Notes: generated by a model from the sequence alone, not told the origin. Numbered from the stretch's first letter, positions 36,157 through 63,744 are shown. The stretch is 64,000 nt of DNA from Candidatus Saganbacteria bacterium (GCA_016223245.1 JACRPL010000006.1:21417-85416); one strand, 5' to 3'. Numbers and translations: made by a program.

Positions 36157-38607
36157 ATGAAAACCGCAAGACAGATTTTATATATTATCTTTATCATCGC
36201 TTTTATGGCTGCGGCTTCAAATGCAATTATTTTTTTGGACCCGCAGCAGAATATCTATCATCTCGACGGAAAGGCCTATCAAACATCAAATGACCTGGGC
36301 CAAAGTTTTACAAAATATAAAAGCCCTGTTTCAAGCGAGGCGAAATATGATCTTGTTTCCGGCCAAAATCTTTACTTGTTCGTAAACAATGATAACAAAT
36401 TGTGGGTCCGCGAAAGTTTGGACCTTGGCCAAAGCTTTTCCCCTGCAAAACTGATAATAAACGATTTTAATCCTGACAATTACTCTGTTTTAATAAATAA
36501 CGGCATTTGGCATCTATTTTCCGCGGAGAAAAAGCGATTATATTACTCATTATCTTCAAATAATGGTCAAAGCTTTTCGCGGCCTGTGCTTATGGCGGAT
36601 TTTTATGTCGATTCGTATGAGATATTTCCCCAAAAAGACAAGATAACGATTTTTGCTAATTCAGGAAAAAATATCTACAAGATCGACGCAATAAACCAGA
36701 CAATTTCAAACCCGATCGAACTTCATGTTTCGGATAACACGATCTCAAGCCTCATAGGGTTTGACCATTCCTTCCTTCCGGAAAATCCCGTTCTTATATG
36801 GGCCGAAATTTTACCAAGCGGCCAAACTGAAATAAAATACCTGCCTGAAAATAAAAAAGAACCTATTTCATTGTATCAATCATCTTATAAAATGACAGGG
36901 ACGGAAGCCAAGCAATCTTATGGGGTTTTTCTCTTGTTTTTTTCTGAATATTTGCCGGATGGGCCGGTCCCGCATCTTATCAGGTTCGACAAATATGGAG
37001 GCTTGGTCCATAGGGCAGAAAAATTATTTGAATCAAGGCCTCCCGCGGAAAAATATTTGGGCTCCTACCCTTTAGGCAATAAGCTTATTTCATTCTTTGA
37101 AAAAAACGGCGATTTGGCGGCCAGCAATATTATCAAATTTACGCCGCAGCTTAAAATCGAAATTCCGAAAGATGCCTTTGTGACAAATCAAAACACCGTC
37201 CATTTCAAGCTTAGTGTTTCAAATGGCGATCCAAGCCAGCTGATCTACGGCTTAAAAATATGCTCGGACCCAAGTTTTCGCGATGATAAGACTTTTGATA
37301 TAAATAATATTTCTTCAGAAACGGATGTTTTATTGCCTTTGCCGGATGGGAATTATGCAATCAAGGCATATGCTACAGACGGCATCTCATACGTAAAATC
37401 TTCCAATGTTTTCGGGCTAACCCTGGACCGGATCCCCCCAAAGATCAAAATATTAAACGATGCCGAAGAGCTTTTTTTAACAGGTTCTGACACGATAGAG
37501 ATTAGGGGCTTGGTTTTAAGCGGGGAAGCGCTTTTTGTTAACGGAAAAAAAGTTGATGTCGGGAAGAATGGCCAGTTTTCATCAATGATCAATCTTTTCC
37601 CAGGAAAAAACAATATTTTGGTCCTTGCAACTGACGAGGCTTCGAACGCATCTTCCGAAAGCCTCTCTATAACTTACAGCGACGATATCCCTCAATTACA
37701 TATAATTTCCCCAAGGGCCGATGATTTCTATAAAAAAGATTCGACTCTTATTATTCGGGCGCAAGTAAAGGACAAGACAAACGATATCATTGCTGGGGCT
37801 GTATCTAATGTATTTATCGACAAGGAAAAGACGGGCGAAAGTCTTGATTTTGATCCCGAAAATTCAACTGTTTCGGGTTTTTTTAGCCTTCCTCCGGAGA
37901 TTGCCGATGGCGAACATTCGATCAAATTGACGCTTGTCGATTCTGCCGGGAACTTAGGGGTCGGGATTTCAAAGTTTAAGATCGACAATACAAAACCTGC
38001 CGTCAATAAAAAATTGTTCCGCGCAAGCGGAAAAAGCGTCAATTTGAGATTTTTCGAGGACGGTTCGGGCATCGACAGCTCCGGGTCATACCTTAAGCTT
38101 TTCCGGGGAAGTTTGGAGGTTGAAGGATATACAAAATACGATAAAAGTTCCGCTGCTTTTGTCCCGACAAACCCGATGCCTGACGGCAACTATTTATTGG
38201 AATATTCTCTTCGCGACATGGTCGGGAATTTTACAAGTAAGGAAAGCGCGCAAATATTAATTTCCTCTTTTGCCGCCCAATCTGTACTAGGAAGCGCTTC
38301 CGGCGATTTATCTATCCTAAGCCTCGAGAACGGCCCAAATCCTTTCAGCCCGGGCAATAATGAGACAACAACGATCAAATATTTAATGTCAGCTTCCGCA
38401 AATCTGGAATTGTATATTTATAACATGCTTGGCGACCTGATCTATAAGAAAAATTACGGCAATATGCCGGCAAGCGGTATTTTCACTTGGGACGGCAGTG
38501 ACCAGTACGGAAAAAAGGCCCTGGGCGGTATTTTTCCGTATGTGATAGCTGCTTCCGATCCAAACGGCAAGAAATATATTAAAAGGGGAAAGATCGCGGT
38601 CTTTTAA
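36157..38607 (+). CDS. Secreted multidomain protein with BNR/Asp-box-like repeats, Ig-like domains and a T9SS-type C-terminal sorting domain.
   Basis: Signal peptide. Three S.DLGQSF-type repeats. A C-terminus GPNPFSPGNNETTTIKY...LELYIYNMLGDLIYKK...GIFTWDG...G.FPYVI matching the Por-secretion-tail / FlgD-Ig-like pattern. Confidence 0.65.
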   Translation: MKTARQILYIIFIIAFMAAASNAIIFLDPQQNIYHLDGKAYQTSNDLGQSFTKYKSPVSSEAKYDLVSGQNLYLFVNNDNKLWVRESLDLGQSFSPAKLIINDFNPDNYSVLINNGIWHLFSAEKKRLYYSLSSNNGQSFSRPVLMADFYVDSYEIFPQKDKITIFANSGKNIYKIDAINQTISNPIELHVSDNTISSLIGFDHSFLPENPVLIWAEILPSGQTEIKYLPENKKEPISLYQSSYKMTGTEAKQSYGVFLLFFSEYLPDGPVPHLIRFDKYGGLVHRAEKLFESRPPAEKYLGSYPLGNKLISFFEKNGDLAASNIIKFTPQLKIEIPKDAFVTNQNTVHFKLSVSNGDPSQLIYGLKICSDPSFRDDKTFDINNISSETDVLLPLPDGNYAIKAYATDGISYVKSSNVFGLTLDRIPPKIKILNDAEELFLTGSDTIEIRGLVLSGEALFVNGKKVDVGKNGQFSSMINLFPGKNNILVLATDEASNASSESLSITYSDDIPQLHIISPRADDFYKKDSTLIIRAQVKDKTNDIIAGAVSNVFIDKEKTGESLDFDPENSTVSGFFSLPPEIADGEHSIKLTLVDSAGNLGVGISKFKIDNTKPAVNKKLFRASGKSVNLRFFEDGSGIDSSGSYLKLFRGSLEVEGYTKYDKSSAAFVPTNPMPDGNYLLEYSLRDMVGNFTSKESAQILISSFAAQSVLGSASGDLSILSLENGPNPFSPGNNETTTIKYLMSASANLELYIYNMLGDLIYKKNYGNMPASGIFTWDGSDQYGKKALGGIFPYVIAASDPNGKKYIKRGKIAVF

Positions 38608-39938
38608 TAAGCCCCATGGGCAGTAATAACGACAGGGATCGTTTTTATTAAAATCTTAAAATCCATCCACAATGACCAGTTCTCGATGTAGTAGATATCG
38701 AGCCTTACCATATCCTCAAATGGCAAGAGCGATCGGCCTGATACTTGCCAAAGCCCTGTTATCCCGGGCTTTGTCCTCAATCTTTTTTTGTGCCATGGAG
38801 AATAATTTATAACCTCCGACGGGAGCGGCGGCCTGGGCCCCACTAGGCTCATATGGCCCAACAGCACATTGAACAATTGAGGCAATTCATCGATCGAAAG
38901 CCTCCTTATTATCACTCCGATGCGGGTTATCCTCGGGTCCTTCTTGATCTTAAAGATATGCCCCTCGACTTCGGACATGCCCTTGATCTTGTCTAACATT
39001 TCTTCGGCATTAATGACCATTGACCTGAATTTGAACATTGGGAAAAGGCAACCGTCTTGTCCTACGCGATTCTGCGAAAAAAATACCGGCCCCCTTGAAT
39101 TGATCTTGATCAGTAAGGCAACTATTATGAATAATGGCAATAATATAAAAAGCAGTACGCCGGAAACAATAATATCTACTAGCCGCTTAATGAACGCATT
39201 AAAGCCCGCCAAACCTATTTCGGAAACGGTTATTAGGGGCACTCCCCCTACTTCGTCGATATTTATCCGCGAAGCCATGATCTCAAGGATGCCTGGTACG
39301 ATCTTGAATTTTACCCGAAGGGTTTCGCAATCGGTAATCAGGTCGAGTATTTTCTTGTAAGGCATGGAGCTATCCGCAAAAATCACCTCATCGGCGGAAT
39401 TTTGCCTAATTGATTCTTTAAGCTTTGATGTATCCGTAATAAATCCGACTGGAAGCCCTCCTAAGGCCTTGACATGTTTGAGCCTTTGCGCAATCGTTTG
39501 TCCCATTTCGCCATGACCTACAATTAAGACTCGTTTGATCCCGATCCCGAATGAGTGCAATAGATTCCTTATAAAAGCGGATATTAATCTGTGTGAAAGC
39601 AGCAATAAAAATGAGAACAGCCATGCATACGCGATAAGAAGCCTTGAGAACCAAAATCCACGATATATGAACAGCATTCCGAATATGACAAATGATGCGA
39701 CGGTAACTGATAGCAGGAGCAAAGCGGCTTCGTCAATAATATCCGATGATTTTTTTTCATATAATCCGACCAGTTTGAAGATTGCAAGCCATAATATCGT
39801 GATAAAAAGAAGCGTTCCAGAAAATTTTTGGAAAACAGGCGCAAGACCGTGGGTCACAAATACCATTACATGGAACCTGACAAAATATGCCATCAGGAAC
39901 GAAACATTGATCAAAGCCGCATCAATTAAGACTTTCAT
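38604..39938 (-). CDS. Polyprenyl-phosphate glycosylphosphotransferase (WbaP/bacterial sugar transferase family), the initiating enzyme.
   Basis: N-terminal TM helices, a central CoA-binding-like domain and the C-terminal sugar-transferase signature ...RPGITGLWQVSGR. 444 aa. Confidence 0.85.
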   Translation of the reverse strand: MKVLIDAALINVSFLMAYFVRFHVMVFVTHGLAPVFQKFSGTLLFITILWLAIFKLVGLYEKKSSDIIDEAALLLLSVTVASFVIFGMLFIYRGFWFSRLLIAYAWLFSFLLLLSHRLISAFIRNLLHSFGIGIKRVLIVGHGEMGQTIAQRLKHVKALGGLPVGFITDTSKLKESIRQNSADEVIFADSSMPYKKILDLITDCETLRVKFKIVPGILEIMASRINIDEVGGVPLITVSEIGLAGFNAFIKRLVDIIVSGVLLFILLPLFIIVALLIKINSRGPVFFSQNRVGQDGCLFPMFKFRSMVINAEEMLDKIKGMSEVEGHIFKIKKDPRITRIGVIIRRLSIDELPQLFNVLLGHMSLVGPRPPLPSEVINYSPWHKKRLRTKPGITGLWQVSGRSLLPFEDMVRLDIYYIENWSLWMDFKILIKTIPVVITAHGAY

Positions 39939-42271
39939 TTTTTAATCAATGACTTGACAAAGTCAAGCTCTTCCCGAGCCCTGGCTGTCTCGCCCCTCTT
40001 CCCGTAAATCTCTGCGAGGCCTTTATGGACATCGGCATTGTTCGGATCGGTTGTCAGCATCTCTTGGAATAATTTGAATGCGGGATCCAGTTCATTGCTC
40101 TTAAGGTGGCTAAAAGCTAATTTAAGCTTCGGCTCGGATAATGTTGGATTGATCCGGTATGCTTCAGCATAAGCTTTTTTTGCATCGTCAAATTTGCCTT
40201 GTTTTTCGGCAATCGCCGCATATGTCAAATAAGCTTCAGCGTAATACGGGTCTATCTTCAATGCGATCGCCGTGTTAATAAGTGTTTTCTCGATATTATT
40301 TTGCATCAAGTGTATCCTCGATGAAATATAATAGTTATCGGCATTAAGCGGATCGACTCTCATGCCGTAGGCAAAAGCATCCAGCGCTTCCTGCAATTTC
40401 TTCTGTTGGTCTTCTTGCGACGCCGGAGATGAAAGCGCATTGTTCAAAAGAGCTATCCCGTAATGCGTAACTGTTCCGCCTTCGTACGGGAAAATATCGA
40501 TAGCGCGATTGAAATATGGGACAGCTTCAGAAAATCTTCTCATATCAAGCAGTGTTTTGCCCATTTTGAATTCCTTGTCAGCTTTAAATTGTTGAACAGA
40601 AATAAGGCATAAATAAGCAGCAATAACTACAATTATTCCAGCCGGAATCCATGGGATATCGTCAAATTGCACTATTTTCTCGTTCTCATGCGCTTGATTA
40701 GAGCTAATATTCATTATAACAGCCCAAAAGACCCAAAATAGCGAAGTAATGGCTATTACCCCAAAACTGAATTGATTTTGGATAATGTACGAAGCAAGGC
40801 TTGCAAATACAACAACAATCAATACCTTGCGGTCATCATCAACGGATTTAAGCTTCAGTAAACCGAACCTGTACAATGATAAAAGTATAAATAAATATAC
40901 AAAGAACGATATCAAGCCTTTTGTTACCGGCACATCAAAGGTTTCATTGTGGCTCCTATCCTGTTTTACATGGAAAGCCTCTTTGAACCTGAACAAATCG
41001 GTTTCATACCTTGGAAATACCATCTTTAATACTTCAGGGCCAACCCCAAAAACAGGATTGTCGGAAATTATCCCAAGCGCGCTTTTCCATGTTTCTCCGC
41101 GCGACCCGGCAGCTCCCCCAAGCTCAACCGGCGTTTCTTTTTCCTTCGTTTTTATCTCGCTTTGCTCTTCGACCCCTTTTACTTTTATCTCGCCTGCAAA
41201 CCGCGCAAATGGCGAAAAATCGGGGTTTAAAGCGGTTGCGATCGAAATTACGCTTATAGCTATCAAGACAGCGGACAAAAGCTTCCAATTATCGACCAAT
41301 CTTTTTCTTGGGGCTAAGGCCAAGATCAAGACAAGGCCTACGCCTAAGCCGATATAGCCTCCCCTGCTTTGCGTATAGAAATTGCAGATATAAACAAGGA
41401 CGATGCTTATGCCAATAAGGGCTTTCATTGCCATGTCCGGCAATTTTTCAAAAGTTTGCGCAAACATTATTCCGCAGATAGCCGTTGGAATAAAGAAAAA
41501 ATACCAAATTAAGGGATTTTGGCCGTCCTGCGTGTAAATCATTATAATAAAAATAAGAGGGACCGCAAGATAATAGATGATCGGGAGTAATATATTATCA
41601 AGCCAGGCGCTCCCCTCTCGCCTTTTCAGGTCATCGAAGATTTTCTTTTTTTTTGTCAATATAATGGGGCGTTCGCTTTGGGCCTGCGGCACAAGCAGGA
41701 AAAAAAACAGTATAAAAAAAGCCATATCCATATATGCGGATAGGAAGTTCGGCTGGCCTATTGTTGCGATTACCCTCTGCCATGTCACGACCCCCCCCCA
41801 GACATATGGATCGTTCCCCATCCTCTGGATTATACCGTAAACTGCCATCGCAGTTGCAGTAGGCGCGACGATGGCGATGAGTTGTTTTAATTTAGCAAAT
41901 CCATGAAAATAATTTGTTGCAATAAAAAACATCATTGCATAACAATACCATGTAGTTAGCCCTTCATATCGGCCGTAAAAGCCAAAAAAACTGATAATCA
42001 CATTTATCGATGTGACCGTTGCGGCTGTCACACAGAGAAGATATGTTAAGATCGGCCAATCAAGGCGCGTGCGGGAAAAAACATGGTTTCCGCGGATCAA
42101 TATCTTGATGATCCAAATTGTCGCGATAAGAAGTATAAAAAGGCGGAGCATCGCAGATTTGGTGCCTGAAAACACAATACCGATCCTCCTGTCAAAAATA
42201 ATAGGCAATAGGATCATCAAGCCTAAGAACATCCATTCTATGGCTTTATCAAAGTATTTTATTTTCATCAA
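39935..42271 (-). CDS. O-antigen ligase/polymerase-like (Wzy_C) polytopic membrane protein fused to C-terminal TPR repeats.
   Basis: More than 10 predicted TM helices across 600 aa, then TPR repeats (...AEAYLTYAAIAEKQGKFDDAKKAYAEAYRINP...). 778 aa. Confidence 0.6.
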   Translation of the reverse strand: MMKIKYFDKAIEWMFLGLMILLPIIFDRRIGIVFSGTKSAMLRLFILLIATIWIIKILIRGNHVFSRTRLDWPILTYLLCVTAATVTSINVIISFFGFYGRYEGLTTWYCYAMMFFIATNYFHGFAKLKQLIAIVAPTATAMAVYGIIQRMGNDPYVWGGVVTWQRVIATIGQPNFLSAYMDMAFFILFFFLLVPQAQSERPIILTKKKKIFDDLKRREGSAWLDNILLPIIYYLAVPLIFIIMIYTQDGQNPLIWYFFFIPTAICGIMFAQTFEKLPDMAMKALIGISIVLVYICNFYTQSRGGYIGLGVGLVLILALAPRKRLVDNWKLLSAVLIAISVISIATALNPDFSPFARFAGEIKVKGVEEQSEIKTKEKETPVELGGAAGSRGETWKSALGIISDNPVFGVGPEVLKMVFPRYETDLFRFKEAFHVKQDRSHNETFDVPVTKGLISFFVYLFILLSLYRFGLLKLKSVDDDRKVLIVVVFASLASYIIQNQFSFGVIAITSLFWVFWAVIMNISSNQAHENEKIVQFDDIPWIPAGIIVVIAAYLCLISVQQFKADKEFKMGKTLLDMRRFSEAVPYFNRAIDIFPYEGGTVTHYGIALLNNALSSPASQEDQQKKLQEALDAFAYGMRVDPLNADNYYISSRIHLMQNNIEKTLINTAIALKIDPYYAEAYLTYAAIAEKQGKFDDAKKAYAEAYRINPTLSEPKLKLAFSHLKSNELDPAFKLFQEMLTTDPNNADVHKGLAEIYGKRGETARAREELDFVKSLIKK

Positions 42272-43190
42272 AAAATCTCCTTATTTTATCTTTAAATATC
42301 TCTTTATCGAATTTTTCGGCATGAGCTCTTAAAGTTTTCTTGTCGAAATCCATTTTATCAAACTTTTCAATTGCTTTCATTAGGCTTTCTGCAGATTGTT
42401 GGCCGAAGAATATTCCTGTTATTTCATCGACCACAGTTTCTAGCGCGCCGCCTTTAGCATATGCTATCGTAGGCCTTCCTGATGCCGCAGCTTCAAGAGG
42501 CGTCATTCCAAAATCTTCCTCGCCAGTAAGGATCAGCGCGCGGCATTCGGATAAAAGCTTCTTCAACTTTTGATCGCTGACCTTTCCTAAGAACGTAATA
42601 TTGGCGCTTGCATTCCGTTTTAATTGAGCTAATGAAGGACCCTCACCTGCTATAATTAAAGGCAGGCCTAACCTTGATACCGCTTCGACCGCGAGATCTA
42701 TCCGCTTATAACCGACAAGCCTTGAAACTATAAGAAAATAGTCCCCATCAATTGCCGATACTGCATATTGTTTTGTATCGATCGGCGGGTAGATCACTAT
42801 TGAATCGCGACTATATATTTGCTTTATCCTTTGGGAAACTATTTTTGAGATCGCGATAAAATGGTCCACATTTTTACTGTTATATAGATCCCAACATTTA
42901 ATGGGCGATAAGACGAACGGCAGTATCCAATTGATAAGGCCGGGGAAATTTTCTTTTTTTATATAATCGGAGTATCGCCAAACAAATCGCATTGGGTTAT
43001 AACAATAGCAGACGTGGACGGCGCCCTTCCGTTTTCTTATCCCTTTTGCGAACGCGGAACTTGAAGATAGTACCACATCATATCCCGATAAATTAAAACT
43101 TAGGAAAGCTAACGGATAAAGCGCGAAAAAGATCCTGAAGTTCTTAAAAATGAAGGGGATCCTTTGCATAAAGGATGTCCTAATAGCCAT
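42249..43190 (-). CDS. Glycosyltransferase, GT-B fold (GT4/group 1).
   Basis: C-terminal ...EDFGMTPLEAAASGRPTIAYAKGGALETV... E-x7-E donor-binding motif. Confidence 0.75.
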   Translation of the reverse strand: MAIRTSFMQRIPFIFKNFRIFFALYPLAFLSFNLSGYDVVLSSSSAFAKGIRKRKGAVHVCYCYNPMRFVWRYSDYIKKENFPGLINWILPFVLSPIKCWDLYNSKNVDHFIAISKIVSQRIKQIYSRDSIVIYPPIDTKQYAVSAIDGDYFLIVSRLVGYKRIDLAVEAVSRLGLPLIIAGEGPSLAQLKRNASANITFLGKVSDQKLKKLLSECRALILTGEEDFGMTPLEAAASGRPTIAYAKGGALETVVDEITGIFFGQQSAESLMKAIEKFDKMDFDKKTLRAHAEKFDKEIFKDKIRRFFDENKIL

Positions 43191-43324
43191 CTTTTTGAAG
43201 CTTTCGGGGAAATTGAATGGATTAAAGATCGAAGTATATATCGGGGCTTCAGGGAAAATTTTATGGAAAGCTTCTACGCATCTTTCGGCTCCGCCAAATT
43301 GGTGGAGGTAATCGTGGACAATGG

Positions 43325-44302
43325 CTATTTTAATTTTTTTAAACGATTGAGATCGGCTTCGACCATTAATTCAACCAATTCATGGAATTTGATCTTTGGT
43401 TCCCAGGATAATTTTCTCCGAGCGAAGCTGTAGTCCCCGCATAAAATGTTCACTTCCGCCGGCCTGTACAATAGATCGTCCACAACAACATATTTCTTGT
43501 AATCCAGGCCGGCTATTGAAAATGCCAATTGGGCAAACTCTAGGATTGAGTGGGTTTCGTTCGTAGCGATGACAAAATCATCCGGTTTGTCCTGGCTTAA
43601 TATTTTCCACATCGCTTCGACATAATCGCCCGCAAAGCCCCAGTCCCTTTTTGCTTCAAGGTTTCCTAGCCGCAATTCTTTTTCAAGCCCAAGCTTTATC
43701 CTTGCAGCGGCATTAGTTATTTTTCTTGTGACGAATTCAAATCCCCTTCTTGGCGATTCATGGTTAAACAAAATTCCGCTGCAGGCAAAAAGGCCGTAAG
43801 CTTCCCTATAATTTCTTGTCAGGTCAAAGCCCGCTACCTTGGATATGCCGTAGGGCGATCTTGGGTGGAAAGGCGTATTTTCATTTTGAGGCGTTTCCGC
43901 GGCGGCGCCAAACATTTCAGATGATCCCGCGAAGTAAAACTTACACTTGGGCGCACGCTCTTTTATAGCGGACAACATATAATGGGTGCCGTTCAAATTG
44001 GTGTTGATCGTAGAAAATTCATCCTCGAACGAGTAGCTGACAAAACTCTGGGCGGCAAGATGATAGCACTCGTCGGGCATAACTTTTTCTATCACCTTAA
44101 AAAGGCTGGCATAATTTTCCAGGGATGCGGGATGAAGGATGAGTTTGCCGTAAAAATCCCTTAATCGCCACATCCTGTGTTCAATATCCTCCAGGGCAAC
44201 GCGCCTAATTATCCCATGCACTTCATACCCTTTCTTTAGAAGGAATTCCGACAAATATGATCCGTCTTGCCCAGTGATCCCTGTAATTAACGCTTTTTTC
44301 AT
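43325..44302 (-). CDS. gmd: GDP-mannose 4,6-dehydratase.
   Basis: MKKALITGITGQDGSYLSEFLLKKGYEVHGIIRR and a YGISK catalytic motif. The start was set at the internal Met, giving an ATGA overlap with the upstream gene. Confidence 0.92.
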   Translation of the reverse strand: MKKALITGITGQDGSYLSEFLLKKGYEVHGIIRRVALEDIEHRMWRLRDFYGKLILHPASLENYASLFKVIEKVMPDECYHLAAQSFVSYSFEDEFSTINTNLNGTHYMLSAIKERAPKCKFYFAGSSEMFGAAAETPQNENTPFHPRSPYGISKVAGFDLTRNYREAYGLFACSGILFNHESPRRGFEFVTRKITNAAARIKLGLEKELRLGNLEAKRDWGFAGDYVEAMWKILSQDKPDDFVIATNETHSILEFAQLAFSIAGLDYKKYVVVDDLLYRPAEVNILCGDYSFARRKLSWEPKIKFHELVELMVEADLNRLKKLK

Positions 44303-46196: not shown

Positions 46197-46220
46197 ATGA
46201 CCTCTTATACCAATTTTATC

Positions 46221-46814: not shown

Positions 46815-46825
46815 TTTAACCTCTT

Positions 46826-47218
46826 TCAGCTAAATGAGAATTTCTTATGGCCCAAATAACTTATAATAACATTTAGAAATATGAGCGGCACTTGTGCAAT
46901 GATAGGATTTATCCTCAAAAATTCAACAATAAGCGGCAGTAAGGCCAAGTTAACAACTATTGAGAATCCATAAACAAAATAAAACCTCATATATTCCTTA
47001 AGATACTTTCCTTTAGTTTTGAAAACGAATATTTTATAGCTTATGTAAGCGTTAGTGATACTGGCAATATTGCTTATAATGAAAAGAATAAGATAGTGCA
47101 TCTTTTCGGAGAATAGCCGGTACAGCAAAATAAATGCCAAATATCCAAATATCGTATTCCAGATCCCTGCCAAGAGGTAATTGATCTTTTCTTTATGGGT
47201 ATGGAAAAAAAGCCTCAT
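46826..47218 (-). CDS. GtrA-family small membrane protein, putative flippase for a lipid-linked sugar.
   Basis: 130 aa, four TM helices, GtrA-like. Directly upstream of a DPM1-like GT2. Confidence 0.6.
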   Translation of the reverse strand: MRLFFHTHKEKINYLLAGIWNTIFGYLAFILLYRLFSEKMHYLILFIISNIASITNAYISYKIFVFKTKGKYLKEYMRFYFVYGFSIVVNLALLPLIVEFLRINPIIAQVPLIFLNVIISYLGHKKFSFS

Positions 47219-53237: not shown

Positions 53238-53248
53238 ATTAATCCCTT

Positions 53249-56509: not shown

Positions 56510-56515
56510 TTGACA

Positions 56516-57295
56516 TTAACCCCACACTTTCCAGGGAGCTTTGCCCGAATCCCATAAACTTTCGAGTATTTTCTTTTCCCTCAATGTGTCCATCGGCTGC
56601 CAGAAACCCGTATGTTTATAAGACATAAGCTGTCCATCTTTTGTGATATTCCGAACAGTATCCTCCTCAAAAGGTATGATCTCGTCCTTTATATAATCCA
56701 GGACTTTGGGTTCCAGGACAAAAAATCCGCCATTGATCCACGAAGTATTGCCTTCCGCTTTCTCCTGGAATTTGTAAACCCGATTATCGTCTTTTATGTT
56801 CAATGCTCCAAACCGCCCAATAGGCCTTACGGCGGTCACGGTTGCAAGCTTGCCGTGGGTTTTATGGAAATTTACCAATGCTTTGATATCAATATCCCCA
56901 ACGCCATCTCCATAGGTAAGCATAAAAGCCTTATTGTCCAAATATTTTCCGGCCCTTTTTATCCTTCCCGCGGTCGAAGTCTCGATCCCGGTATCAACAA
57001 GCGTCACTCGCCATGGTTCTGCCGTATTAGTTTGGATAATTGTTTTTTGGGAGCCTGAACTGAAATCGAAAGTAACGTCGGATTCATGCAAAAAGTAATT
57101 GGCAAAATATTCTTTTATCTGATAGCCCTTGTAACCCAAACATACGACGAAATCGTTGAACCCAAAATGGGAATAAAGCTTCATGATATGCCAAAGGATA
57201 GGCTTGTCGCCTATTTCAAGCATTGGTTTTGGCTTCAATGACGATTCTTCGCCAATTCTTGTCCCTAAACCTCCCGCAAGGATCATTACCTTCAT
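56516..57295 (-). CDS. rfbF: Glucose-1-phosphate cytidylyltransferase.
   Basis: MKVMILAGGLGTRIGEESSLKPKPMLEIGDKPILWHIM... is near-canonical RfbF. 259 aa. Confidence 0.9.
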   Translation of the reverse strand: MKVMILAGGLGTRIGEESSLKPKPMLEIGDKPILWHIMKLYSHFGFNDFVVCLGYKGYQIKEYFANYFLHESDVTFDFSSGSQKTIIQTNTAEPWRVTLVDTGIETSTAGRIKRAGKYLDNKAFMLTYGDGVGDIDIKALVNFHKTHGKLATVTAVRPIGRFGALNIKDDNRVYKFQEKAEGNTSWINGGFFVLEPKVLDYIKDEIIPFEEDTVRNITKDGQLMSYKHTGFWQPMDTLREKKILESLWDSGKAPWKVWG

Positions 57296-57319
57296 ATTGT
57301 TTCCTCCATTATAGATATT

Positions 57320-58816
57320 TTATCCGATTTTTTCATACAAAGATACTGTTATCCTATATGAGCCCTTCTTGTGCCTATTTATCGGCAATTTTGAAACTAA
57401 AGTGCTTTCGTAGGGGACGAATTTCCGGATCATTTTCAGCCGATAATTATTACCTAGGCTAAGTTTTATGCTTTCAATATATCCTTTCGGGAAAACCCGC
57501 TCATCGACAATATTTGTTATGAGCCAGATCCTTTTGGCTATCAATTCGGAAGGCTTTAGGAGCGCATGTCCATTTACAAGCGAAACCATTTCGTAATCAC
57601 CCGGAAGATAATACTTTAAGATATTATATGTAATATGCCTATTTGTTGCGGCAATTAGATCGCCTTTTAAATGTTCTTTTTCTATTATTTGAGAGACTTC
57701 CCTCCATGGCTCGATCTGGTTTGAATTATGGTATTCATTAAATGTGAAATAATTGGCGATCGAAATACTTTGAAATAAAAGGATCAGCCCAAATAAAATA
57801 TAGAAAATGACCGGATTTTTTATACGCGACAGGGAAATCCCAAGCAAGGCAATATAAAATGGCAATGTAAAGATGAGGTATTTTGGCATTGTCGACGGTA
57901 AAATAGATGCTATAACTATAGGCATTACAAGAAATATCATCATGTACACGTTTTTTTCATCTTTCGATCCAATGAATTGAAATATCAACAAGGATCCAAT
58001 AATTATTAACGATGGAATTACAATAATGTTCCAAGGTGCGACCGTCTCACCCAAGGCAAGCACAAAGAAGATCAATGGCAATTTTAATGTTGGGGGGAAC
58101 GTGGAAAACGCCATATCCGGGGTCCCGGAAATAACGGCCATGGCCGCATGAATGATGATCTTAAAATAAAGAGGGAAAATTAGAATTGAAACAATAAGCA
58201 AAAAGCCAAGCGCTAAACGAGAGTTGGCATCTTTTTTTCTTAGGTAAATGATCGCGCAAAGTACAAATTGGCTAAATATCATCAATGCCGAATAAATTTG
58301 GGTCAAACCTAACAGCAAAGTGCATAAAATGAAAACAATTGAGGCTTTAATTGTCACTTGCTTGTACAACAACCTAAAGAGCGACCAGGCCGATAAAATA
58401 GATAACAATAGCATTAGCCCATACAACCTAATTTCGTGAGAATGCATAATGGCCAATGGTGAAAAAGCTAAAAGGCCGGCACAAACTAAGGCGGCCCTAT
58501 CGCTTATTGTATCTTTTACGAAAAGGTACATAGCTATCATAGAAAATATGCCAATGATAACTGAAAGCATGCGCAACCCGTATTCAGTAGGTCCGAAAAC
58601 TTTTATCCATAAAAACAATATCGCAAAATATGCCGGAAGATGGGATTCGATTGCCAATGCCTTGATATCAAAATGGCCGGATACGGAATAAATACTATGC
58701 GCTTCATCACCCCAAAGGCTTCGGAATATCGGGTCATAGATCCTGATAAAAGAGCCCAATAACAGGATAAATAAGAAGATCATGAATATTCTGTTTGCTT
58801 TAATCGCCGAAAACAT
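57320..58816 (-). CDS. GT-C fold membrane glycosyltransferase (GT39/ArnT/PMT-like).
   Basis: Polytopic, with a DE motif in the first periplasmic loop (SLWGDEAHS). 498 aa. Confidence 0.6.
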   Translation of the reverse strand: MFSAIKANRIFMIFLFILLLGSFIRIYDPIFRSLWGDEAHSIYSVSGHFDIKALAIESHLPAYFAILFLWIKVFGPTEYGLRMLSVIIGIFSMIAMYLFVKDTISDRAALVCAGLLAFSPLAIMHSHEIRLYGLMLLLSILSAWSLFRLLYKQVTIKASIVFILCTLLLGLTQIYSALMIFSQFVLCAIIYLRKKDANSRLALGFLLIVSILIFPLYFKIIIHAAMAVISGTPDMAFSTFPPTLKLPLIFFVLALGETVAPWNIIVIPSLIIIGSLLIFQFIGSKDEKNVYMMIFLVMPIVIASILPSTMPKYLIFTLPFYIALLGISLSRIKNPVIFYILFGLILLFQSISIANYFTFNEYHNSNQIEPWREVSQIIEKEHLKGDLIAATNRHITYNILKYYLPGDYEMVSLVNGHALLKPSELIAKRIWLITNIVDERVFPKGYIESIKLSLGNNYRLKMIRKFVPYESTLVSKLPINRHKKGSYRITVSLYEKIG

Positions 58817-60071
58817 TATATTTTAACTCCTTCAATGTTTTAATGCCTTCTTCCAAGACCTTCCGGTCGCCATAGATTTGCTCGGATGACTTGATCGACA
58901 TCCTATCGCCTTTCAACCTAAGCTCTTTTTCGATCGGCGCGAATTTCTTTATTTTATAGATCCCCAGTGCTATCCCGCTTGCCCAATTTGAAATAATGAC
59001 CAAAGTGAATATTAATATTGCTGGCTTTAGATAATGGTCGATTTTTTTTGTTCTAATTAAATATAAGAGAAAAAGCCAAATAAAGCCCAAGAAATAGAAC
59101 ATTTGGAACATATGGTATCTCGATAATAACGCGAACTTGATCCCAAAATTAACCCTCCCAATAGATGTAATGAAAGCCGTCAAAATAGAATAGAACATCA
59201 TTGAATACGGTATGATCGTTTCTTTATGGCCATATTTATACGTTTTGAACACTAATACAGCACCGATAACAAAGAAAATAAAGCCCCAAATTCCAGCGAT
59301 CAGAAGCAATATCGGCAATAAATGACCTACTTTGTAAGTAGGAATAAAATTAGCCCCGAAATAAACGAAAAAGTATTCGATGATTTTAATAGTATTTGTG
59401 AGCGGTAAGGCCGTATTGTTTTTGGTCAGGACATTCTCGGAAAAATAGAGCATATATGTTAATATGCACGCTGAAAAGAACATAAGCATGTTTTGAATGT
59501 TTTTCTTTGGAGAAAATATTATGCCGGGAAGACATGCGATCCAGCCCAAAAGGCCGGTCAAAAAAGAGAAGGAAGCTATGACCAATGAAATTATCATGAT
59601 CAAGAGCGACCTCAAATTTGATCCTGTATTGTACGAATTGATAATAGCTAAAAAAACAAAAACGAGGCATAGGAGGTATGCCGAAAAACTGAATAATATA
59701 TTTTCATGATGTATCGGGGAGTATTGGGCCAATAACGCAAAAAAGAAAAGTATTCTCGCACTTTTATTGCTAATATTCTTTGAAAATGAATTATATATAA
59801 GAAGCATTAACATTGAAAACAATAGAAGAGATGCAAAAGTCTCGTATTTTAAATTCCACTGGCTTATATGGGCCAAAAAGACGGTTATCAAATTTGGGAA
59901 AAATACCCGGTGCTCACTTACCCTTGCCCAAAGATTTTGAATATTTGGTTGTTTTATTATATGGATAAAAGACCATTGGTCGGCGATCGGAATATTAGGC
60001 GTGAAAGTCAGGACATAGATCGATAATAATATAAAAACAATAAAAAATATAGTTTTTTGTATAGAGCTCAT
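58800..60071 (-). CDS. Polytopic membrane protein, possibly a second GT-C-type transferase or a polymerase.
   Basis: 423 aa with 10 or more hydrophobic segments. No soluble domain. Confidence 0.5.
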   Translation of the reverse strand: MSSIQKTIFFIVFILLSIYVLTFTPNIPIADQWSFIHIIKQPNIQNLWARVSEHRVFFPNLITVFLAHISQWNLKYETFASLLLFSMLMLLIYNSFSKNISNKSARILFFFALLAQYSPIHHENILFSFSAYLLCLVFVFLAIINSYNTGSNLRSLLIMIISLVIASFSFLTGLLGWIACLPGIIFSPKKNIQNMLMFFSACILTYMLYFSENVLTKNNTALPLTNTIKIIEYFFVYFGANFIPTYKVGHLLPILLLIAGIWGFIFFVIGAVLVFKTYKYGHKETIIPYSMMFYSILTAFITSIGRVNFGIKFALLSRYHMFQMFYFLGFIWLFLLYLIRTKKIDHYLKPAILIFTLVIISNWASGIALGIYKIKKFAPIEKELRLKGDRMSIKSSEQIYGDRKVLEEGIKTLKELKYNVFGD

Positions 60072-60940
60072 TTCATTGAACCCTTCCCAAGCTTACCGGA
60101 TGCAAAATCATATATTGCAAGCATTGTAGTTCTAATACTGCCGAATTGCCTATTTTTTAAAGACTCTATCAGCGAATAGATCGGGAAAATTACCAGATTT
60201 AGCACCAACGGTATTAATTGACCTGTCTTTTTGAAGAACAAAAGATTATTTCTCGTGCGAAAATAAGTGTAAAAGGGAGACAATTTCCCCCCCATTGATG
60301 CCGCAAATTTGTGATAGATCACCGCTTTCGGCACAATCAACAATTGATACCCCGCCCTTCTTGCCCGAATGCTAATATCCACATCCTCATAATTATTGAA
60401 ATAATCGGCATCGAGCATGCCTATTTTCCCCAATACTTCTCTTTTGATAAGCATTGAACAACCGGAGATCCATTCTGTTTCGCCGGATCCCGAAAGGTCG
60501 TGCGCCGGTTTTCTTATGATAGGTAAAAACTTTCCGCCAGAAAACCAAACCTTTGTTTTATCGGAATATTGCATTATCCTCGGGGATAATATGCCGGCGG
60601 AACGATTTTCTTGTCCTGCCGAAATAAGATGCGACAGAAAATTAGGTTCAACAGTTGTGTCATTGTTTAACAGAAGAACATAGTCGGCGCCATGGGATAA
60701 CGCAAGCCTTATCCCAACGTTGCTCCCTTCGGCGAAACCAAGATTTTTGCCGTTTTCAATCAAAGTTATTCCCGGAAATTCATTTTTAATATGAATTTGC
60801 GAGCTATCTTTGGATCCGTTATCGGCTAAAATGATCTCAAAGTTGCCATAATCTGTGTTCATTAGCGAAGCGAGACATTCCTTTGTATCAAAATATTGGT
60901 TCCAATTGAGTATAACTATCGAAACTTTAGGTTTATTCAT
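60068..60940 (-). CDS. GT2 glycosyltransferase.
   Basis: KVSIVILNWNQYFDTKECLASL...ILADNGSKD and a DxD motif. The start was set at the internal MNKPKVS to avoid overlap. Confidence 0.8.
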   Translation of the reverse strand: MNKPKVSIVILNWNQYFDTKECLASLMNTDYGNFEIILADNGSKDSSQIHIKNEFPGITLIENGKNLGFAEGSNVGIRLALSHGADYVLLLNNDTTVEPNFLSHLISAGQENRSAGILSPRIMQYSDKTKVWFSGGKFLPIIRKPAHDLSGSGETEWISGCSMLIKREVLGKIGMLDADYFNNYEDVDISIRARRAGYQLLIVPKAVIYHKFAASMGGKLSPFYTYFRTRNNLLFFKKTGQLIPLVLNLVIFPIYSLIESLKNRQFGSIRTTMLAIYDFASGKLGKGSMK

Positions 60941-61857
60941 TTTTTTTCTTTCCCAAGTAATTTGCGGATCCCCTCCACTAATCCAATTTTTGGCTTCCAT
61001 CCAGGCAGCCTCTTTCCTTTATTCCAAGGGATCATTACCTCTCTATCCCGGTATGTTCGCCCACCCCACATGACATTGGCATTTCGACCGGACAATTTGG
61101 AATAAATATCAACAATTCTTCTAAGCTCAAGGGGTTTGCCCGACGAAACAGAAAAGTTCTCAATTCTCTTGCCCTTTGATCTAGCAATCCTTGAAGCCGC
61201 CTTAAGATAAGCGTCGATCACATCGTCTATATATACAAGGTCGATCAATTGGCGGCCAGGGGACATTGTGATCGACCGTCCGGATATTGAAGAATCATGG
61301 AGAAGTTTAAATAATTTTGCCCGCTTATCTTCCGGCCCATAAGTGTCGAAAAGCTTTAAAGTAATGACTTTGAGCTCTGTTGAGCTTGCATAATACTCAA
61401 TAATATCTTCAAACGCCTGTTTGGTCGCGGCATAAAGATTGACGGGGCTGTAGTGTTTGTTTTGAAAGTGCTGCCATGAGGTACCCGTATTTACCAAGTA
61501 ATTGCATTGGTTGACTCTCATGGCCTCGAGCAACTGTGTCCCAAATAGAACATTTGATCCGATCAATGGATTAATATCTGTTGATGAATGTTCTGATATG
61601 AACAGGGAAGCGAGATGAAAAACGATATCAGGCTTTGCCCGCCTTAATATCGAGAGTAATCCTTCTGTCGAACCGTCATGTTCAAAGATCTTGACGATCG
61701 GATATTTCTTGGCCAGCAATAACTTATCTGCTCCGGGCCTTACAACCACGCTTATCGTTATCTTTTTTTGCAGCAAGCGTTCCAACAAATGAGAACCGAT
61801 AAACCCTGCAGCTCCGGTAATGAGTATATTATTAAATTTGGAATTAGATCTTTTCAT
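60937..61857 (-). CDS. NAD-dependent epimerase or 4-ketoreductase (extended SDR).
   Basis: ILITGAAGFIGSHLLERL and a YAATKQAFE catalytic motif. The start was set at the internal MKRSNSKF. Confidence 0.75.
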   Translation of the reverse strand: MKRSNSKFNNILITGAAGFIGSHLLERLLQKKITISVVVRPGADKLLLAKKYPIVKIFEHDGSTEGLLSILRRAKPDIVFHLASLFISEHSSTDINPLIGSNVLFGTQLLEAMRVNQCNYLVNTGTSWQHFQNKHYSPVNLYAATKQAFEDIIEYYASSTELKVITLKLFDTYGPEDKRAKLFKLLHDSSISGRSITMSPGRQLIDLVYIDDVIDAYLKAASRIARSKGKRIENFSVSSGKPLELRRIVDIYSKLSGRNANVMWGGRTYRDREVMIPWNKGKRLPGWKPKIGLVEGIRKLLGKEKK

Positions 61858-62422
61858 ATATAAATGGGCTCTTATAATCCTTGAGGTTTTGCAGCTTAGC
61901 ATCGCGCTCGGACACGATCGGTTTATTGTTTGGCCAGGGGACCCCCGCGCTGGACCAATGTATACCCCCATCATTTGCGGGTGAATGCTTAAAACTTGTC
62001 TTATAGAGCAGGATTGCCTCGCTGCTTAAAACATAAAACCCATGGGCCACTCCAGCGGGGAGGTAGAGCAAATGGCTTACTTTTGCGCTAAGTTCAAAAG
62101 TTTCATGCTGGCCGAATGTTTCCGATCCGATCCTTAGGTCAACGATCGCATCAAATACCTCGCCGAACAAACAACAAACGATCTTGGAATAAGCCGCCGG
62201 CGGTGTCTGGAAATGCATTCCCCTTAAAACGCCTTTGCTTGATTTTGAATAAAAATCCTCCGCAAAACATGTTGGCAGCTTATGCGTTAGAAACTGTTCT
62301 TCCTCGAAGAACTTGACCAAACTTCCGCGCGCGTCGAGATGTATTATTGGTTCAATTTCATAACATCCCGCAATTTTAGTTTTTTTTATTTTCATTGGTT
62401 TCTCCTCCATATGTATCGCCAA
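61844..62422 (-). CDS. RmlC-like cupin sugar-nucleotide 3,5(5)-epimerase.
   Basis: dTDP-4-dehydrorhamnose-3,5-epimerase fold motifs (...KGVLRGMHFQ...YSKIV.C..G...D...D.R..S.TFG...). 192 aa. Confidence 0.75.
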   Translation of the reverse strand: MAIHMEEKPMKIKKTKIAGCYEIEPIIHLDARGSLVKFFEEEQFLTHKLPTCFAEDFYSKSSKGVLRGMHFQTPPAAYSKIVCCLFGEVFDAIVDLRIGSETFGQHETFELSAKVSHLLYLPAGVAHGFYVLSSEAILLYKTSFKHSPANDGGIHWSSAGVPWPNNKPIVSERDAKLQNLKDYKSPFIYEKI

Positions 62423-63744
62423 TGCGCAATTGTTTCGCGGAATTTATTTGCGATCTTTTTTAAGAGCCTTTTCTTTTTAATGGACCTTATCCTGGAATCA
62501 AGATACAAATAATCCACTCCTTTGATCTTTTGAGATCTGGGAGAACGGTCAACTTCATGATCTTTGATCAAGCTTAGCCCGTGTTCCTTGCAATATAAAA
62601 AAAGCTCGCTTCCGGGATGCGGGGTAAAATAGGACGGCGAATCGTAGTCGGGATCGATCTTTTCGATAATTGAGATCGTTTGTTCCACCTCTTCTTTTGT
62701 CTCGGTCGGCAGGCCGAACATATAATTGGCAAATATTTCAACGCCATTTTTCCTGCAAATTTCGGCCGCGCGCAAATTTTGTTCGACCGTTGTCCCTTTT
62801 TTGATAAAATCCAAGATCCTCTGGCTGCCGCTCTCAAAACCGATTATAAGGCATGCCAGTCCCGATTTTTTCATCTCATAGATCAGCTCTTCGTTGTTGC
62901 TTATTATATCTGCGCGGCTCTGGCAAACAAATTTCTTTTTGATGCCCAATCTATTATACTCCTCACAAAACCTCATGACCCATTTTTTGTCATAGGTAAA
63001 TAGGTCGTCGTGGACCATAAAGCTGTTGAATTTATACCGGCTATACAGATGATCCAATTCGTCAATGACATTTTCAACGCTTCTCATCCTGACCCTGTCG
63101 CCAAATACACGCCGTTCGGCCGGCTGGCAAAAAGTGCAATTAAACGGGCATCCCCGCCCGACATTGAGCGTAACGAAAGGTGCTTTTAAAGACTTGATGA
63201 ACGGGTGGAACAGTTCGGCGCTTACATCAAACAGGTCCCTATCGATCCACGACAGCGTGTCAAGCGAGGTTGCCTCGCCCTGATAGACCCTGTCAGGCAT
63301 TCCGCCGCTTTTAATTATATCCAATATTCTAGAAAATATTACTTCCCCTTCACCAACAACGATTATATCGATATCATTGTTGCTTTTCATCTGTTCAAGC
63401 ATTATCGTCGGGTGGACCCCTCCAACAACAGTTATTGCCTTTGGATTGGTCTGCTTTGTTATTTTTATCGCTTCGAGCGCCGGTAAAAGATCGATGCTCA
63501 TGATCGAGAAACCGACGACTTCAGAGCCTTGTTCCTTCAATATTTCGGAATAATGTTCCCAATCTCTCAATTTACGAAGATCAATGCCTTTAACATCGTA
63601 ACCTTTTTGTTTTGCATAACTGCTGATGGAACAAAGACCGTGATTTATATAATTAACAACGGGATCGCTTCCACGGCCATAGCTATTAAATCCCCGCATT
63701 CCGATGCCCGGATAAACAAGTGTGGCTTTTAATGAGCTATTCAT
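62392..63744 (-). CDS. B12-binding radical SAM protein (class B rSAM, candidate C-methyltransferase or rearrangement enzyme).
   Basis: N-terminal cobalamin-binding Rossmann domain (...VVGFSIMS...ITVVGGVHPT) followed by the CxxxCxxC motif GRGCPFNCTFC. Confidence 0.85.
   Translation of the reverse strand: MNSSLKATLVYPGIGMRGFNSYGRGSDPVVNYINHGLCSISSYAKQKGYDVKGIDLRKLRDWEHYSEILKEQGSEVVGFSIMSIDLLPALEAIKITKQTNPKAITVVGGVHPTIMLEQMKSNNDIDIIVVGEGEVIFSRILDIIKSGGMPDRVYQGEATSLDTLSWIDRDLFDVSAELFHPFIKSLKAPFVTLNVGRGCPFNCTFCQPAERRVFGDRVRMRSVENVIDELDHLYSRYKFNSFMVHDDLFTYDKKWVMRFCEEYNRLGIKKKFVCQSRADIISNNEELIYEMKKSGLACLIIGFESGSQRILDFIKKGTTVEQNLRAAEICRKNGVEIFANYMFGLPTETKEEVEQTISIIEKIDPDYDSPSYFTPHPGSELFLYCKEHGLSLIKDHEVDRSPRSQKIKGVDYLYLDSRIRSIKKKRLLKKIANKFRETIAHWRYIWRRNQ

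Follow-up and report, generated by a model that had tools for sequence, protein, structure and literature searches.

A ten-gene cassette with a YerE-like carboligase and an AroB-related enzyme in a surface-glycan locus of Candidatus Saganbacteria

What kind of sugar is made where genes for a thiamine diphosphate (ThDP) carboligase, a pyruvate aldolase-like protein and a relative of 3-dehydroquinate synthase (DHQS, AroB) are found together among other glycan genes? The question is raised by a stretch of 64,000 nucleotides from Candidatus Saganbacteria bacterium (GCA_016223245.1, JACRPL010000006.1:21417-85416), hereafter the window, in which positions are counted from the first letter. A first-pass annotation of this DNA had treated its rarely seen enzymes as separate curiosities of a glycan operon. 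Comparison with other genomes does not bear this out: the ThDP enzyme, the HpcH-like protein, a FabG-like protein and the DHQS-like protein (hereafter the AroB-related enzyme) belong to one syntenic cassette of ten genes, whereas a hydrolase of the metallo-beta-lactamase (MBL) fold and a B12-binding radical S-adenosylmethionine enzyme (B12-rSAM) do not belong to it. We find it quite likely that the cassette builds an acyl-branched dideoxyhexose of the YerE type. Our fuller proposal, to which we would give a probability of roughly 0.45, is that the cassette makes and exports a 4-C-acyl-branched 3,6-dideoxyhexose and that the AroB-related and FabG-like enzymes deoxygenate the end of the branch.

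The conserved cassette and its enzymes

To find related loci, an alignment of the TIGR04425 family was scanned against one genome per species (185,579 species), and relatives of the AroB-like marker were identified in 484 of these species-representative genomes. Synteny was compared for the 80 best marker loci, both by tblastn with the 24 proteins of the window's glycan unit and by clustering of all open reading frames (ORFs). Cassette gene counts refer to the 47 loci having at least 8 kb on each side of the marker (complete loci). The 80 loci come from Spirochaetes, delta-proteobacteria (including Geobacter and Anaeromyxobacter), Margulisiibacteriota, Melainabacteria, Elusimicrobia, Chloroflexi, Nitrospirota, Nitrosospira, Sulfuriferula, Rickettsiales, Actinomycetota, Effusibacillus and Paenibacillus. 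Ten of the window genes, and no more, co-occur in them. The commonest order is RfbF-RfbG-RfbH-SDR-ThDP-HpcH-FabG-AroB-GT2-GtrA (SDR, short-chain dehydrogenase/reductase; GT2, family 2 glycosyltransferase), which the window shows too (57295 to 46826) and which recurs in Margulisiibacteriota, delta-proteobacteria, Nitrospirota, Thermoleophilia, Paenibacillus and others. No part of the cassette is more constant than the AroB-related and FabG-like pair: the FabG-like SDR gene is present in 46 of the 47 complete loci and adjoins the AroB-related gene in as many (79 of the 80 loci overall). The ThDP gene is found in 43 complete loci, the HpcH-like gene in 40, RfbH in 32, and RfbF and RfbG in 31 each. 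A polyprenyl phosphate-type GT2 gene directly follows the AroB-related gene in 25 of the 47 (about 60% identity), and GtrA, or a second GtrA-type family, occurs in 18; elsewhere, GT87 or GtrA-like genes are found along with the cassette.

That the ThDP enzyme is YerE-like, as had been claimed from the sequence, is supported. Its top solved relative is JanthE (8rph; 425 bits, with residues 2-596 aligned, including a shared C-terminal tail). The second is 5ahk (286 bits), which we take to be PpYerE, the YerE structure from Pseudomonas protegens (Hampel et al. 2018). Acetolactate synthases (AHAS) rank below both, at about 271 bits or less, and the protein meets no NCBIfam acetolactate synthase cutoff. 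JanthE itself has been described as a YerE-like carboligase that accepts ketones (PMC12188165). Phosphonate biosynthesis, in which a ThDP decarboxylase would go with a barrel resembling phosphoenolpyruvate (PEP) mutase, was considered and ruled out: the ThDP enzyme is of the three-domain acetolactate synthase/YerE type, and the barrel is like HpaI, not like PEP mutase. In one related locus (L081, 8718-9653), a transketolase C-terminal-half protein stands at the usual site of the ThDP gene, of which a short ThDP-like fragment is left.

The HpcH-like protein is strongly conserved, with 72-85% identity among the top 120 homologues and a median of 66% across phyla, and its family comprises 304 clusters at E<=1e-30 in a search of 50%-representative proteins. 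A search of a plasmid collection, in which a link to Mycobacterium marinum MMAR_2331 was attempted, returned no match to the family. The AlphaFold2 (AF2) model has a mean predicted local distance difference test (pLDDT) score of 94.8, and the top Foldseek match is HpaI (E 3e-8), followed by SbnG, RipC, malyl-CoA lyase and the pyruvate kinase barrel. Residues E114 and D143 align with the metal ligands of YfaU/HpaI and are invariant. As modelled, then, the protein has a class II aldolase fold and the metal ligands that go with it. In five loci without HpcH, a NeuB-family synthase (PF03102, 136 bits) is encoded between ThDP and FabG-AroB, and Geobacter sp. AOG1 has an HMGL/DmpG-type aldolase in the HpcH slot (replacements of either type: L021 7899-8990, L023 8093-9211, L032 8210-9301, L041 8249-9337, L049 2928-4016 and L037 7588-9183). 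In three loci, ThDP-FabG-AroB are present with the aldolase slot empty. HpaI-, NeuB- and DmpG-type enzymes all condense pyruvate or PEP with an aldehyde into a 4-hydroxy-2-oxo acid (3-deoxy-2-ulosonate). Since the slot can be filled by HpcH, NeuB or HMGL types sharing this activity, its job is presumably to make a 3-deoxy-2-ulosonate, and we regard these non-orthologous displacements as the strongest functional evidence for an aldolase step.

The AroB-related enzyme matches TIGR04425 over its full length at 398.9 bits (cutoff 400), as against 249.9 bits for the aroB model TIGR01357 (cutoff 305), and NCBI names its close homologues after the former family, 'putative sugar phosphate phospholyase (cyclizing)'. 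Residues K136, N140, E178, K181, K220, R234, N238, H241, H245, H257 and K317/K318 are invariant in 21 diverse family members and align with DHQS motifs. By DHQS numbering, we take them to be the metal and phosphate ligands of DHQS together with the Arg and Lys that bind the carboxylate of 3-deoxy-D-arabino-heptulosonate 7-phosphate (DAHP). The retention of DHQS-type ligands, including the carboxylate-binding Arg/Lys, points to a DAHP-like 3-deoxy-2-ulosonate phosphate as the substrate. The closest solved relatives are DHQS (162 bits), 2-deoxy-scyllo-inosose synthase (DOIS, 96 bits) and a ValA-type cyclase (92 bits). These scores, along with the kept DAHP carboxylate-binding residues, rule out a C7-cyclitol or aminocyclitol synthase of the type of DOIS or 2-epi-5-epi-valiolone synthase (EEVS). 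In the searched literature, we found nothing on an AroB-related enzyme or a dehydroquinate synthase in clusters for branched sugars or lipooligosaccharides.

Other enzymes of the cassette concern the acceptor sugar and the reductase next to the carboligase gene. RfbH has His at the site of the Lys that binds pyridoxal phosphate (PLP) (FFPAHQITMGEGG) and a CxCx7C motif, both of which we take to be hallmarks of E1. The gene for the 292-aa extended SDR adjoins the ThDP gene in 25 of the 47 complete loci, and another SDR, of 353 aa, is encoded at the same position in 11 more. In other words, an extended SDR stands beside the ThDP gene here and in 36 of the 47 loci and belongs to one of two interchangeable families. 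By analogy of position, the 292-aa SDR may be a side-chain ketoreductase corresponding to YerF.

A proposed pathway and its rivals

The unusual C-C bond chemistry that had been proposed for this locus belongs to a widespread module of a known pathway type: a scheme in which a YerE-like enzyme, a pyruvate aldolase and a reductase act on CDP-4-keto-3,6-dideoxyglucose has already been published (PMC9306805, PMC12247030). A unifying scheme for acyl-branched sugars was proposed and partly demonstrated by Steitz et al. 2022: a pyruvate aldolase makes a hydroxylated 2-oxo acid, a YerE-like ThDP enzyme adds it to CDP-4-keto-3,6-dideoxyglucose, and a YerF-like reductase follows (PMC9306805). Aldolase-derived gamma-hydroxy alpha-keto acids of C4-C8 serve as donors for ErwE, for MMAR_2332 and for MyGE; the products of the scheme are erwiniose, caryophyllose and gastriose (PMC9306805). 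MMAR_2331, a gene of the aldolase/citrate-lyase family, is required for caryophyllose (PMC9306805, PMC5706390). A 2025 review (PMC12247030) refers to a computational survey in which over 200 YerE-like clusters were covered. Acyl-branched 3,6-dideoxyhexoses are a known class. The gene content of the window's cassette agrees with the published scheme; the invariant pair of AroB-related and FabG-like genes is not described in the searched literature.

It is tempting to extend this scheme as follows. RfbF, RfbG and RfbH (E1) would convert glucose-1-phosphate into CDP-4-keto-3,6-dideoxyglucose, as expected from their homology. The HpcH-like aldolase would join pyruvate to an aldose that is probably phosphorylated, erythrose-4-phosphate for instance, yielding a DAHP-like 3-deoxy-2-ulosonate; aldolase-free loci could use DAHP itself, and the ThDP-FabG-AroB arrangement of the three loci with an empty slot fits such use of primary DAHP. 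By transient NAD+ oxidation and metal chemistry, the AroB-related enzyme would then eliminate the terminal phosphate and the FabG-like enzyme would reduce the resulting methyl ketone, so that CH2-O-phosphate becomes CH3. The product would be a 3,omega-dideoxy-2-ulosonate, for example 4,5,6-trihydroxy-2-oxoheptanoate. Alternatively, the pair might act on the aldose ahead of the aldol step. The ThDP enzyme could next decarboxylate the alpha-keto acid and attach the acyl anion at C4 of the CDP-keto sugar, and the 292-aa SDR, to judge from the position of its gene, may reduce the side-chain carbonyl as YerF does, giving a caryophyllose-type sugar. The appeal of the deoxygenation step lies in the branch of caryophyllose, 1,3,4,5-tetrahydroxyhexyl (PMC5706390), whose carbon skeleton is that of pyruvate joined to a tetrose with its terminus deoxygenated; no explanation for the origin of this terminus was found in the searched literature.

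For the export of the product, PgfS and ArnC are the best NCBIfam models for the GT2 encoded at 47220..48152, and GtrA (PF04138) and GT-C (PF13231) proteins are encoded in the same unit. The GT2 would load the sugar on polyprenyl phosphate, and the GtrA-family protein, by analogy with known systems, may be the flippase for the lipid-linked sugar. The PMT_2-type GT-C enzyme, of a kind that takes sugars linked to polyprenyl phosphate, and perhaps a second, orphan GT-C-like protein, could then attach the sugar outside the membrane to a glycan that the other transferases assemble on the carrier primed by the initiating transferase (Bac_transf).

Several observations weigh against this proposal. 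Neither the window nor any of the 80 related loci has a gene for E3, an AscD/RfbI-type 2Fe-2S flavin reductase; the gene for the electron donor in C3 deoxygenation must lie elsewhere. The HpcH-like protein is very remote from the characterised aldolases, its match to HpaI having 12% identity and a template modelling (TM) score of 0.55. With a DAHP-like substrate, chemistry of the DHQS type usually leads to the spontaneous closure of a carbocycle, and a non-cyclising outcome needs a reductase that traps the open-chain diketone. It is equally possible that the 292-aa SDR is an abequose/paratose-type 4-reductase; its size matches that of the extended SDR family of the CDP-abequose and CDP-paratose synthases. 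Enzymes of the PgfS/ArnC type normally take UDP-sugars, not CDP-sugars. In the searched literature no mention of TIGR04425 members was found.

The chemistry of the AroB family suggests a different course for the middle of the pathway. To our knowledge, the characterised phosphate-eliminating relatives of AroB, namely DHQS, DOIS, EEVS and desmethyl-4-deoxygadusol synthase (DDGS), all make carbocycles; the closest solved relatives of the enzyme are DHQS and then DOIS and a cyclase, the putative DHQS-type catalytic set is invariant, and the family name given by NCBI contains the word 'cyclizing'. The AroB-related enzyme might accordingly cyclise the phosphorylated chain derived from the aldolase, with the FabG-like enzyme reducing the ring ketone. 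The cassette would then make a nucleotide sugar with a cyclitol-type C-branch, whose ring is either closed on the branch carbonyl after ThDP ligation to the CDP-sugar or supplied as a free dehydroquinate-like ketone. YerE-like enzymes do accept cyclic ketones (PMC12247030). We nevertheless consider cyclisation unlikely. If the free acid were cyclised before ligation, no alpha-keto acid would be left for the decarboxylating ThDP enzyme, and if the ring were closed afterwards, the carboxylate-binding Arg/Lys would lack a partner and the SDR in the YerF position would lack a ketone. Moreover, two Nitrospirota loci carry HpcH-FabG-AroB with no ThDP gene within 10 kb, which suggests that the product of the trio is a free metabolite. 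The searched literature yielded no glycan with such a branch, and we know of no described monosaccharide class with a cyclitol-type C-branch.

The cassette might also consist of two modules that merely travel together, RfbF/G/H and the 292-aa SDR making an abequose/paratose-type sugar and ThDP-HpcH-FabG-AroB making a separate non-sugar or cyclitol substituent. The size of the CDP-abequose/paratose synthase family would suit this division, and so would those loci that lack RfbF/G/H within 10 kb and carry ThDP-HpcH-FabG-AroB or only HpcH-FabG-AroB (L065, L039 and L055). The physiological substrates of JanthE, moreover, are unknown (PMC12188165). Yet the RfbH-SDR-ThDP adjacency is kept even where the SDR is swapped for another SDR at the same position, much as in YerE/YerF; YerE-like enzymes with a proposed physiological role all act on CDP-4-keto-3,6-dideoxyglucose; and the placement of a polyprenyl phosphate GT2 gene right after the AroB-related gene implies that the end product of the cassette is a nucleotide sugar. 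Taken together, this makes two independent modules improbable. Least probable of all, in our view, is that the 24 genes are several separately transcribed, unrelated operons that share a strand. Such a division could be argued from sigma-70-like promoter hexamers, which a motif scan found within genes at chance frequency, and from joint conservation elsewhere being limited to the ten cassette genes. However, at most 27 nt separate neighbouring genes, and at 16 of the 23 junctions the genes overlap (by ATGA in eight cases, by GTGA in one and by a longer stretch in seven). In addition, every annotated gene belongs to glycan assembly, while the flanks are housekeeping or convergent. Terminator-like hairpins are more numerous in 50000-64000 than in shuffled sequences (26 versus 13.6 +/- 4.5), all of them weak and inside coding sequence; their excess is probably a composition effect, and we judged the motif scans uninformative. 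A single transcript for the 24 genes is therefore suggested by their spacing alone. Deoxygenation of an acyl branch by the AroB-related and FabG-like pair, within a single glycan unit, remains the reading that we prefer.

The surrounding glycan locus

The ORF listing gives an unbroken run of 24 minus-strand ORFs from 63744 down to 38604 (Table 1), with start codons chosen in line with gene calls made independently on a Logan contig of identical sequence (SRR12113407_306938). The 25-kb co-directional operon of about 24 genes that had been described thus stands as regards its genes and tight junctions, but it does not end at the window edge. Positions 63745-64000 encode the C-terminus of a protein whose stop codon overlaps the ATG of the B12-rSAM gene and whose frame is open to the edge. 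On the Logan contig (L002), this protein is a Wzx-type flippase of 515 aa (the gene call carries Polysacc_synt/Polysacc_synt_3). Co-directional genes occupy L002 1-5491: the flippase gene is preceded by those for a GT2 of 343 aa and for Glf (UDP-galactopyranose mutase, 371 aa), and further upstream in the same direction by genes for a GT2 of 224 aa and a HAD/PNK3P-type phosphatase of 171 aa and by one partial gene. The unit consequently does not begin at 63744, since the flippase stop overlaps the rSAM start and at least five co-directional genes lie upstream. We conclude that the stretch holds the downstream 25 kb of a Wzx-type surface-glycan locus at least 30 kb long.

All domain calls of the first-pass annotation were reproduced when each ORF was annotated with Pfam and NCBIfam models, and the initiating transferase, the Wzy_C protein with tetratricopeptide repeats (TPR), the GT1 and GT2 enzymes, the Gmd/RmlD-like branch and the RfbF/G/H branch are all present. 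By family, the SDRs of the unit comprise five of the extended type (Pfam Epimerase) and a FabG-like one, besides which there is one RmlD, and the glycosyltransferase tally gives two GT2 enzymes plus one polyprenyl phosphate-type GT2.

Table 1. Genes of the glycan unit in the window, listed in the direction of transcription and preceded by the end of the flippase gene
Feature	Position	Strand	Evidence
Wzx-type flippase, C-terminal end	63745..64000	-	open frame to window edge
B12-binding radical SAM enzyme, no specific subfamily	62392..63744	-	PF02310 + PF04055; NCBIfam scores far under cutoffs
RmlC-like cupin 3,5-epimerase	61844..62395	-	PF00908 174 bits; TIGR01221 144.8 bits (under cutoff 155.75)
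Extended SDR, 306 aa, NDP-sugar epimerase/reductase type	60937..61857	-	PF01370 121 bits; start from Logan gene call
GT2, rhamnosyltransferase-like	60068..60940	-	PF00535; TIGR01556 97 bits, under cutoff
Orphan polytopic membrane protein	58800..60071	-	no Pfam match at E<=0.1
GT-C glycosyltransferase (PMT_2/ArnT-like)	57320..58816	-	PF13231 34.9 bits (cutoff 26.1)
RfbF, glucose-1-phosphate cytidylyltransferase (cassette gene 1)	56516..57295	-	TIGR02623 408 bits (cutoff 300)
RfbG, CDP-glucose 4,6-dehydratase (cassette gene 2)	55445..56509	-	TIGR02622 458 bits (cutoff 278)
RfbH/E1, CDP-6-deoxy-4-keto-hexose 3-dehydrase (cassette gene 3)	54124..55455	-	NF011936 736 bits (cutoff 423)
Extended SDR, 292 aa, YerF position (cassette gene 4)	53249..54127	-	PF01370
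MBL-fold hydrolase, RNase Z/phosphodiesterase-like (cassette insertion)	52485..53237	-	PF12706 + PF00753; NCBIfam all under cutoff
YerE/JanthE-like ThDP carboligase (cassette gene 5)	50668..52488	-	three TPP domains
Divergent HpcH/HpaI-type class II pyruvate aldolase, predicted (cassette gene 6)	49860..50675	-	PF03328 31.4 bits (cutoff 25)
FabG-like classical SDR, 219 aa (cassette gene 7)	49204..49863	-	PF13561 187 bits
AroB-related enzyme, TIGR04425 (cassette gene 8)	48149..49213	-	TIGR04425 398.9 bits (cutoff 400); DHQS N + C domains
GT2 polyprenyl-phosphate glycosyltransferase, PgfS/ArnC-like (cassette gene 9)	47220..48152	-	PF00535; NF047588 (PgfS) 189 bits, ArnC 108 bits, both under cutoff
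GtrA-family small membrane protein (cassette gene 10)	46826..47218	-	PF04138 68 bits
DUF218/ElyC-like envelope protein	46221..46814	-	PF02698 86 bits
Extended SDR, 341 aa, NDP-sugar epimerase/dehydratase type	45168..46193	-	PF01370 126 bits
RmlD-type 4-ketoreductase	44299..45165	-	TIGR01214 301 bits (cutoff 224)
Gmd, GDP-mannose 4,6-dehydratase	43325..44302	-	PF16363 394 bits
GT4/GT1 glycosyltransferase, full length only from ATT 43334	42249..43334	-	PF00534 + PF13439
Wzy_C (O-antigen ligase/polymerase-type) membrane domain fused to TPR	39935..42268	-	PF04932 65.6 bits + several TPR families
Initiating phosphoglycosyl transferase, Bac_transf, WbaP/PglC type (last gene of the unit)	38604..39938	-	PF02397 230 bits + PF13727

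A seeming gap of 134 nt between gmd and the GT1 gene (43191-43324) is an artefact of allowing only ATG, GTG and TTG as start codons. The GT1 frame stays open across it and codes for a typical GT4 N-terminus (KIAIVHDYLHQFGGAE); as this open frame supplies the missing N-terminus, a truncated GT1 pseudogene behind the gap was ruled out. No ATG, GTG or TTG occurs in frame upstream of 43190, and the sole in-frame start candidate is an ATT at 43334, which overlaps the gmd stop codon. Either translation begins at a rare codon here or the sequence contains an error.

Among the parts expected of a Wzx/Wzy system, Bac_transf is present, Wzx lies just past the window edge, and the Wzy_C protein could be a polymerase or a ligase; neither the window nor L002 showed a Wzz-type gene. 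The orphan membrane protein has only nine homologues among 5.8 billion proteins. Its AF2 model (pLDDT 85) gives Foldseek matches that are all to GT-C enzymes, namely STT3, DPY19, AglB, PMT and ArnT, at weak scores (E 0.03-0.5, TM up to 0.50, for ArnT), and a homologue with 32% identity adjoins the cassette in a Margulisiibacteriota genome (L006 1549-2724). The model thus suggests that the orphan is probably a divergent glycosyltransferase of the GT-C fold. A role as the Wzy polymerase was not supported, the structural matches being all to GT-C, though weak.

Outside the ten cassette genes, little of the unit is shared with other loci. The MBL hydrolase gene is inserted between the SDR and ThDP genes, and homologues with 47-49% identity are encoded near the cassette in only three of the 80 loci (L010 898-1635, L029 1453-2193 and L031 3220-3966); the Logan annotation of this hydrolase also lists Anti-Pycsar_Apyc1. 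Relatives of the B12-rSAM are just 27-29% identical and occur in four of the 80 loci, those of the RmlC-like protein occur in five, and Gmd reaches at least 60% coverage and 40% identity in only two. At these thresholds, the PMT_2-type GT-C enzyme, the Wzy_C-TPR protein, Bac_transf, GT1, DUF218 and RmlD have no counterpart in the 80 loci. In our view, the RmlC-like protein and the SDR encoded next to it, the Gmd/RmlD-like pair, the B12-rSAM, the MBL hydrolase and the DUF218 protein are locus-specific additions that supply other sugars or modifications. The B12-rSAM may have a tailoring role of the C-methylation type, and the Wzy_C-TPR protein is likewise a locus-specific extra.

GC content is 0.36-0.39 over much of the glycan locus compared with 0.42-0.47 in the flanks. 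At its 38604 end, the unit meets a convergent gene on the plus strand, 36157-38607, which overlaps the last stop codon by 4 nt. Its 816-aa product carries a CHU_C domain (type IX secretion signal) at the C-terminus, together with Ig-like domains and a glucodextranase-B-like domain. Elsewhere the window holds housekeeping genes (PBP1a, PGM/PMM, SurA, FtsEX, SHMT, IMPDH, GuaA, AlaRS, DnaB, MutS and PheST), and scans for tRNA genes and Rfam families found none in the window. An ORF of 1057 aa without a Pfam match, 18788-21961 (+), lies in the part of the window with the lowest GC content (about 0.37). Other long ORFs without a Pfam match are 1457-2485, 11299-12438, 12410-13057, 13461-15281 and 26699-28258.

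Significance and relation to known systems

Long-chain sugars with a carbon branch, caryophyllose among them, are rare in bacterial envelopes and are immunologically active. Our comparison ties a YerE-type branching pathway to an uncharacterised AroB-like enzyme and a small reductase in bacteria ranging from Firmicutes to Nitrospirota, Geobacter, Melainabacteria and Saganbacteria. If the role proposed for this pair is true, a function could be assigned to NCBIfam TIGR04425, the published scheme for acyl-branched sugars would be completed, and a natural donor type would be predicted for JanthE-like carboligases, which are under development as biocatalysts. Branched sugars would then occur much more widely than their chemical detection, in a few species, indicates. 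Should the AroB-related enzyme cyclise instead, a class of cyclitol-branched sugars would be expected in the envelopes of hundreds of species from many phyla. The structurally novel surface glycan that had been predicted for the locus is plausible.

The closest parallels are the pathways for yersiniose (YerE/YerF), erwiniose (ErwE/F/I/J), caryophyllose (MMAR_2331/2332) and gastriose (MyGE), which, like the cassette, combine CDP-glucose genes, a ThDP carboligase, an aldolase and an adjacent NAD(P)H reductase, the last putative in the cassette. The cassette differs from them in that an AroB-related gene and a FabG-like SDR gene, a pair unmentioned in the searched literature, are invariant here and in at least 79 other species-representative loci. 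Its aldolase, furthermore, is of a very divergent HpcH type and not of the BphI type, and the cassette ends with a polyprenyl phosphate GT2 and GtrA and has no E3 gene. With JanthE of Janthinobacterium sp. HH01, which takes long 2-oxo acids and ketones (PMC12188165), the window's carboligase shares sequence likeness over the full length, although the ThDP motif is CDG in JanthE and the canonical GDG in the window protein.

The AroB-related enzyme has the same two Pfam domains as AroB, DOIS and EEVS. Unlike these, its family sits in glycan loci beside a ThDP carboligase and not in clusters for aromatic amino acids or aminocyclitols, and its family-specific changes include GGGILQD, DSCIGAK and GHCFGH. 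Finally, a polyprenyl phosphate GT2, a GtrA protein and a GT-C enzyme are likewise encoded together in three-component glycosylation systems (GtrA/GtrB/GtrC, ArnC/ArnE-F/ArnT and the PgfS type). In the Saganbacteria locus, however, the donor would need to be a CDP-activated branched sugar, the GT2 falls well short of the equivalog cutoffs for PgfS and ArnC, and a second, orphan GT-C-like protein is encoded beside the PMT_2 enzyme.

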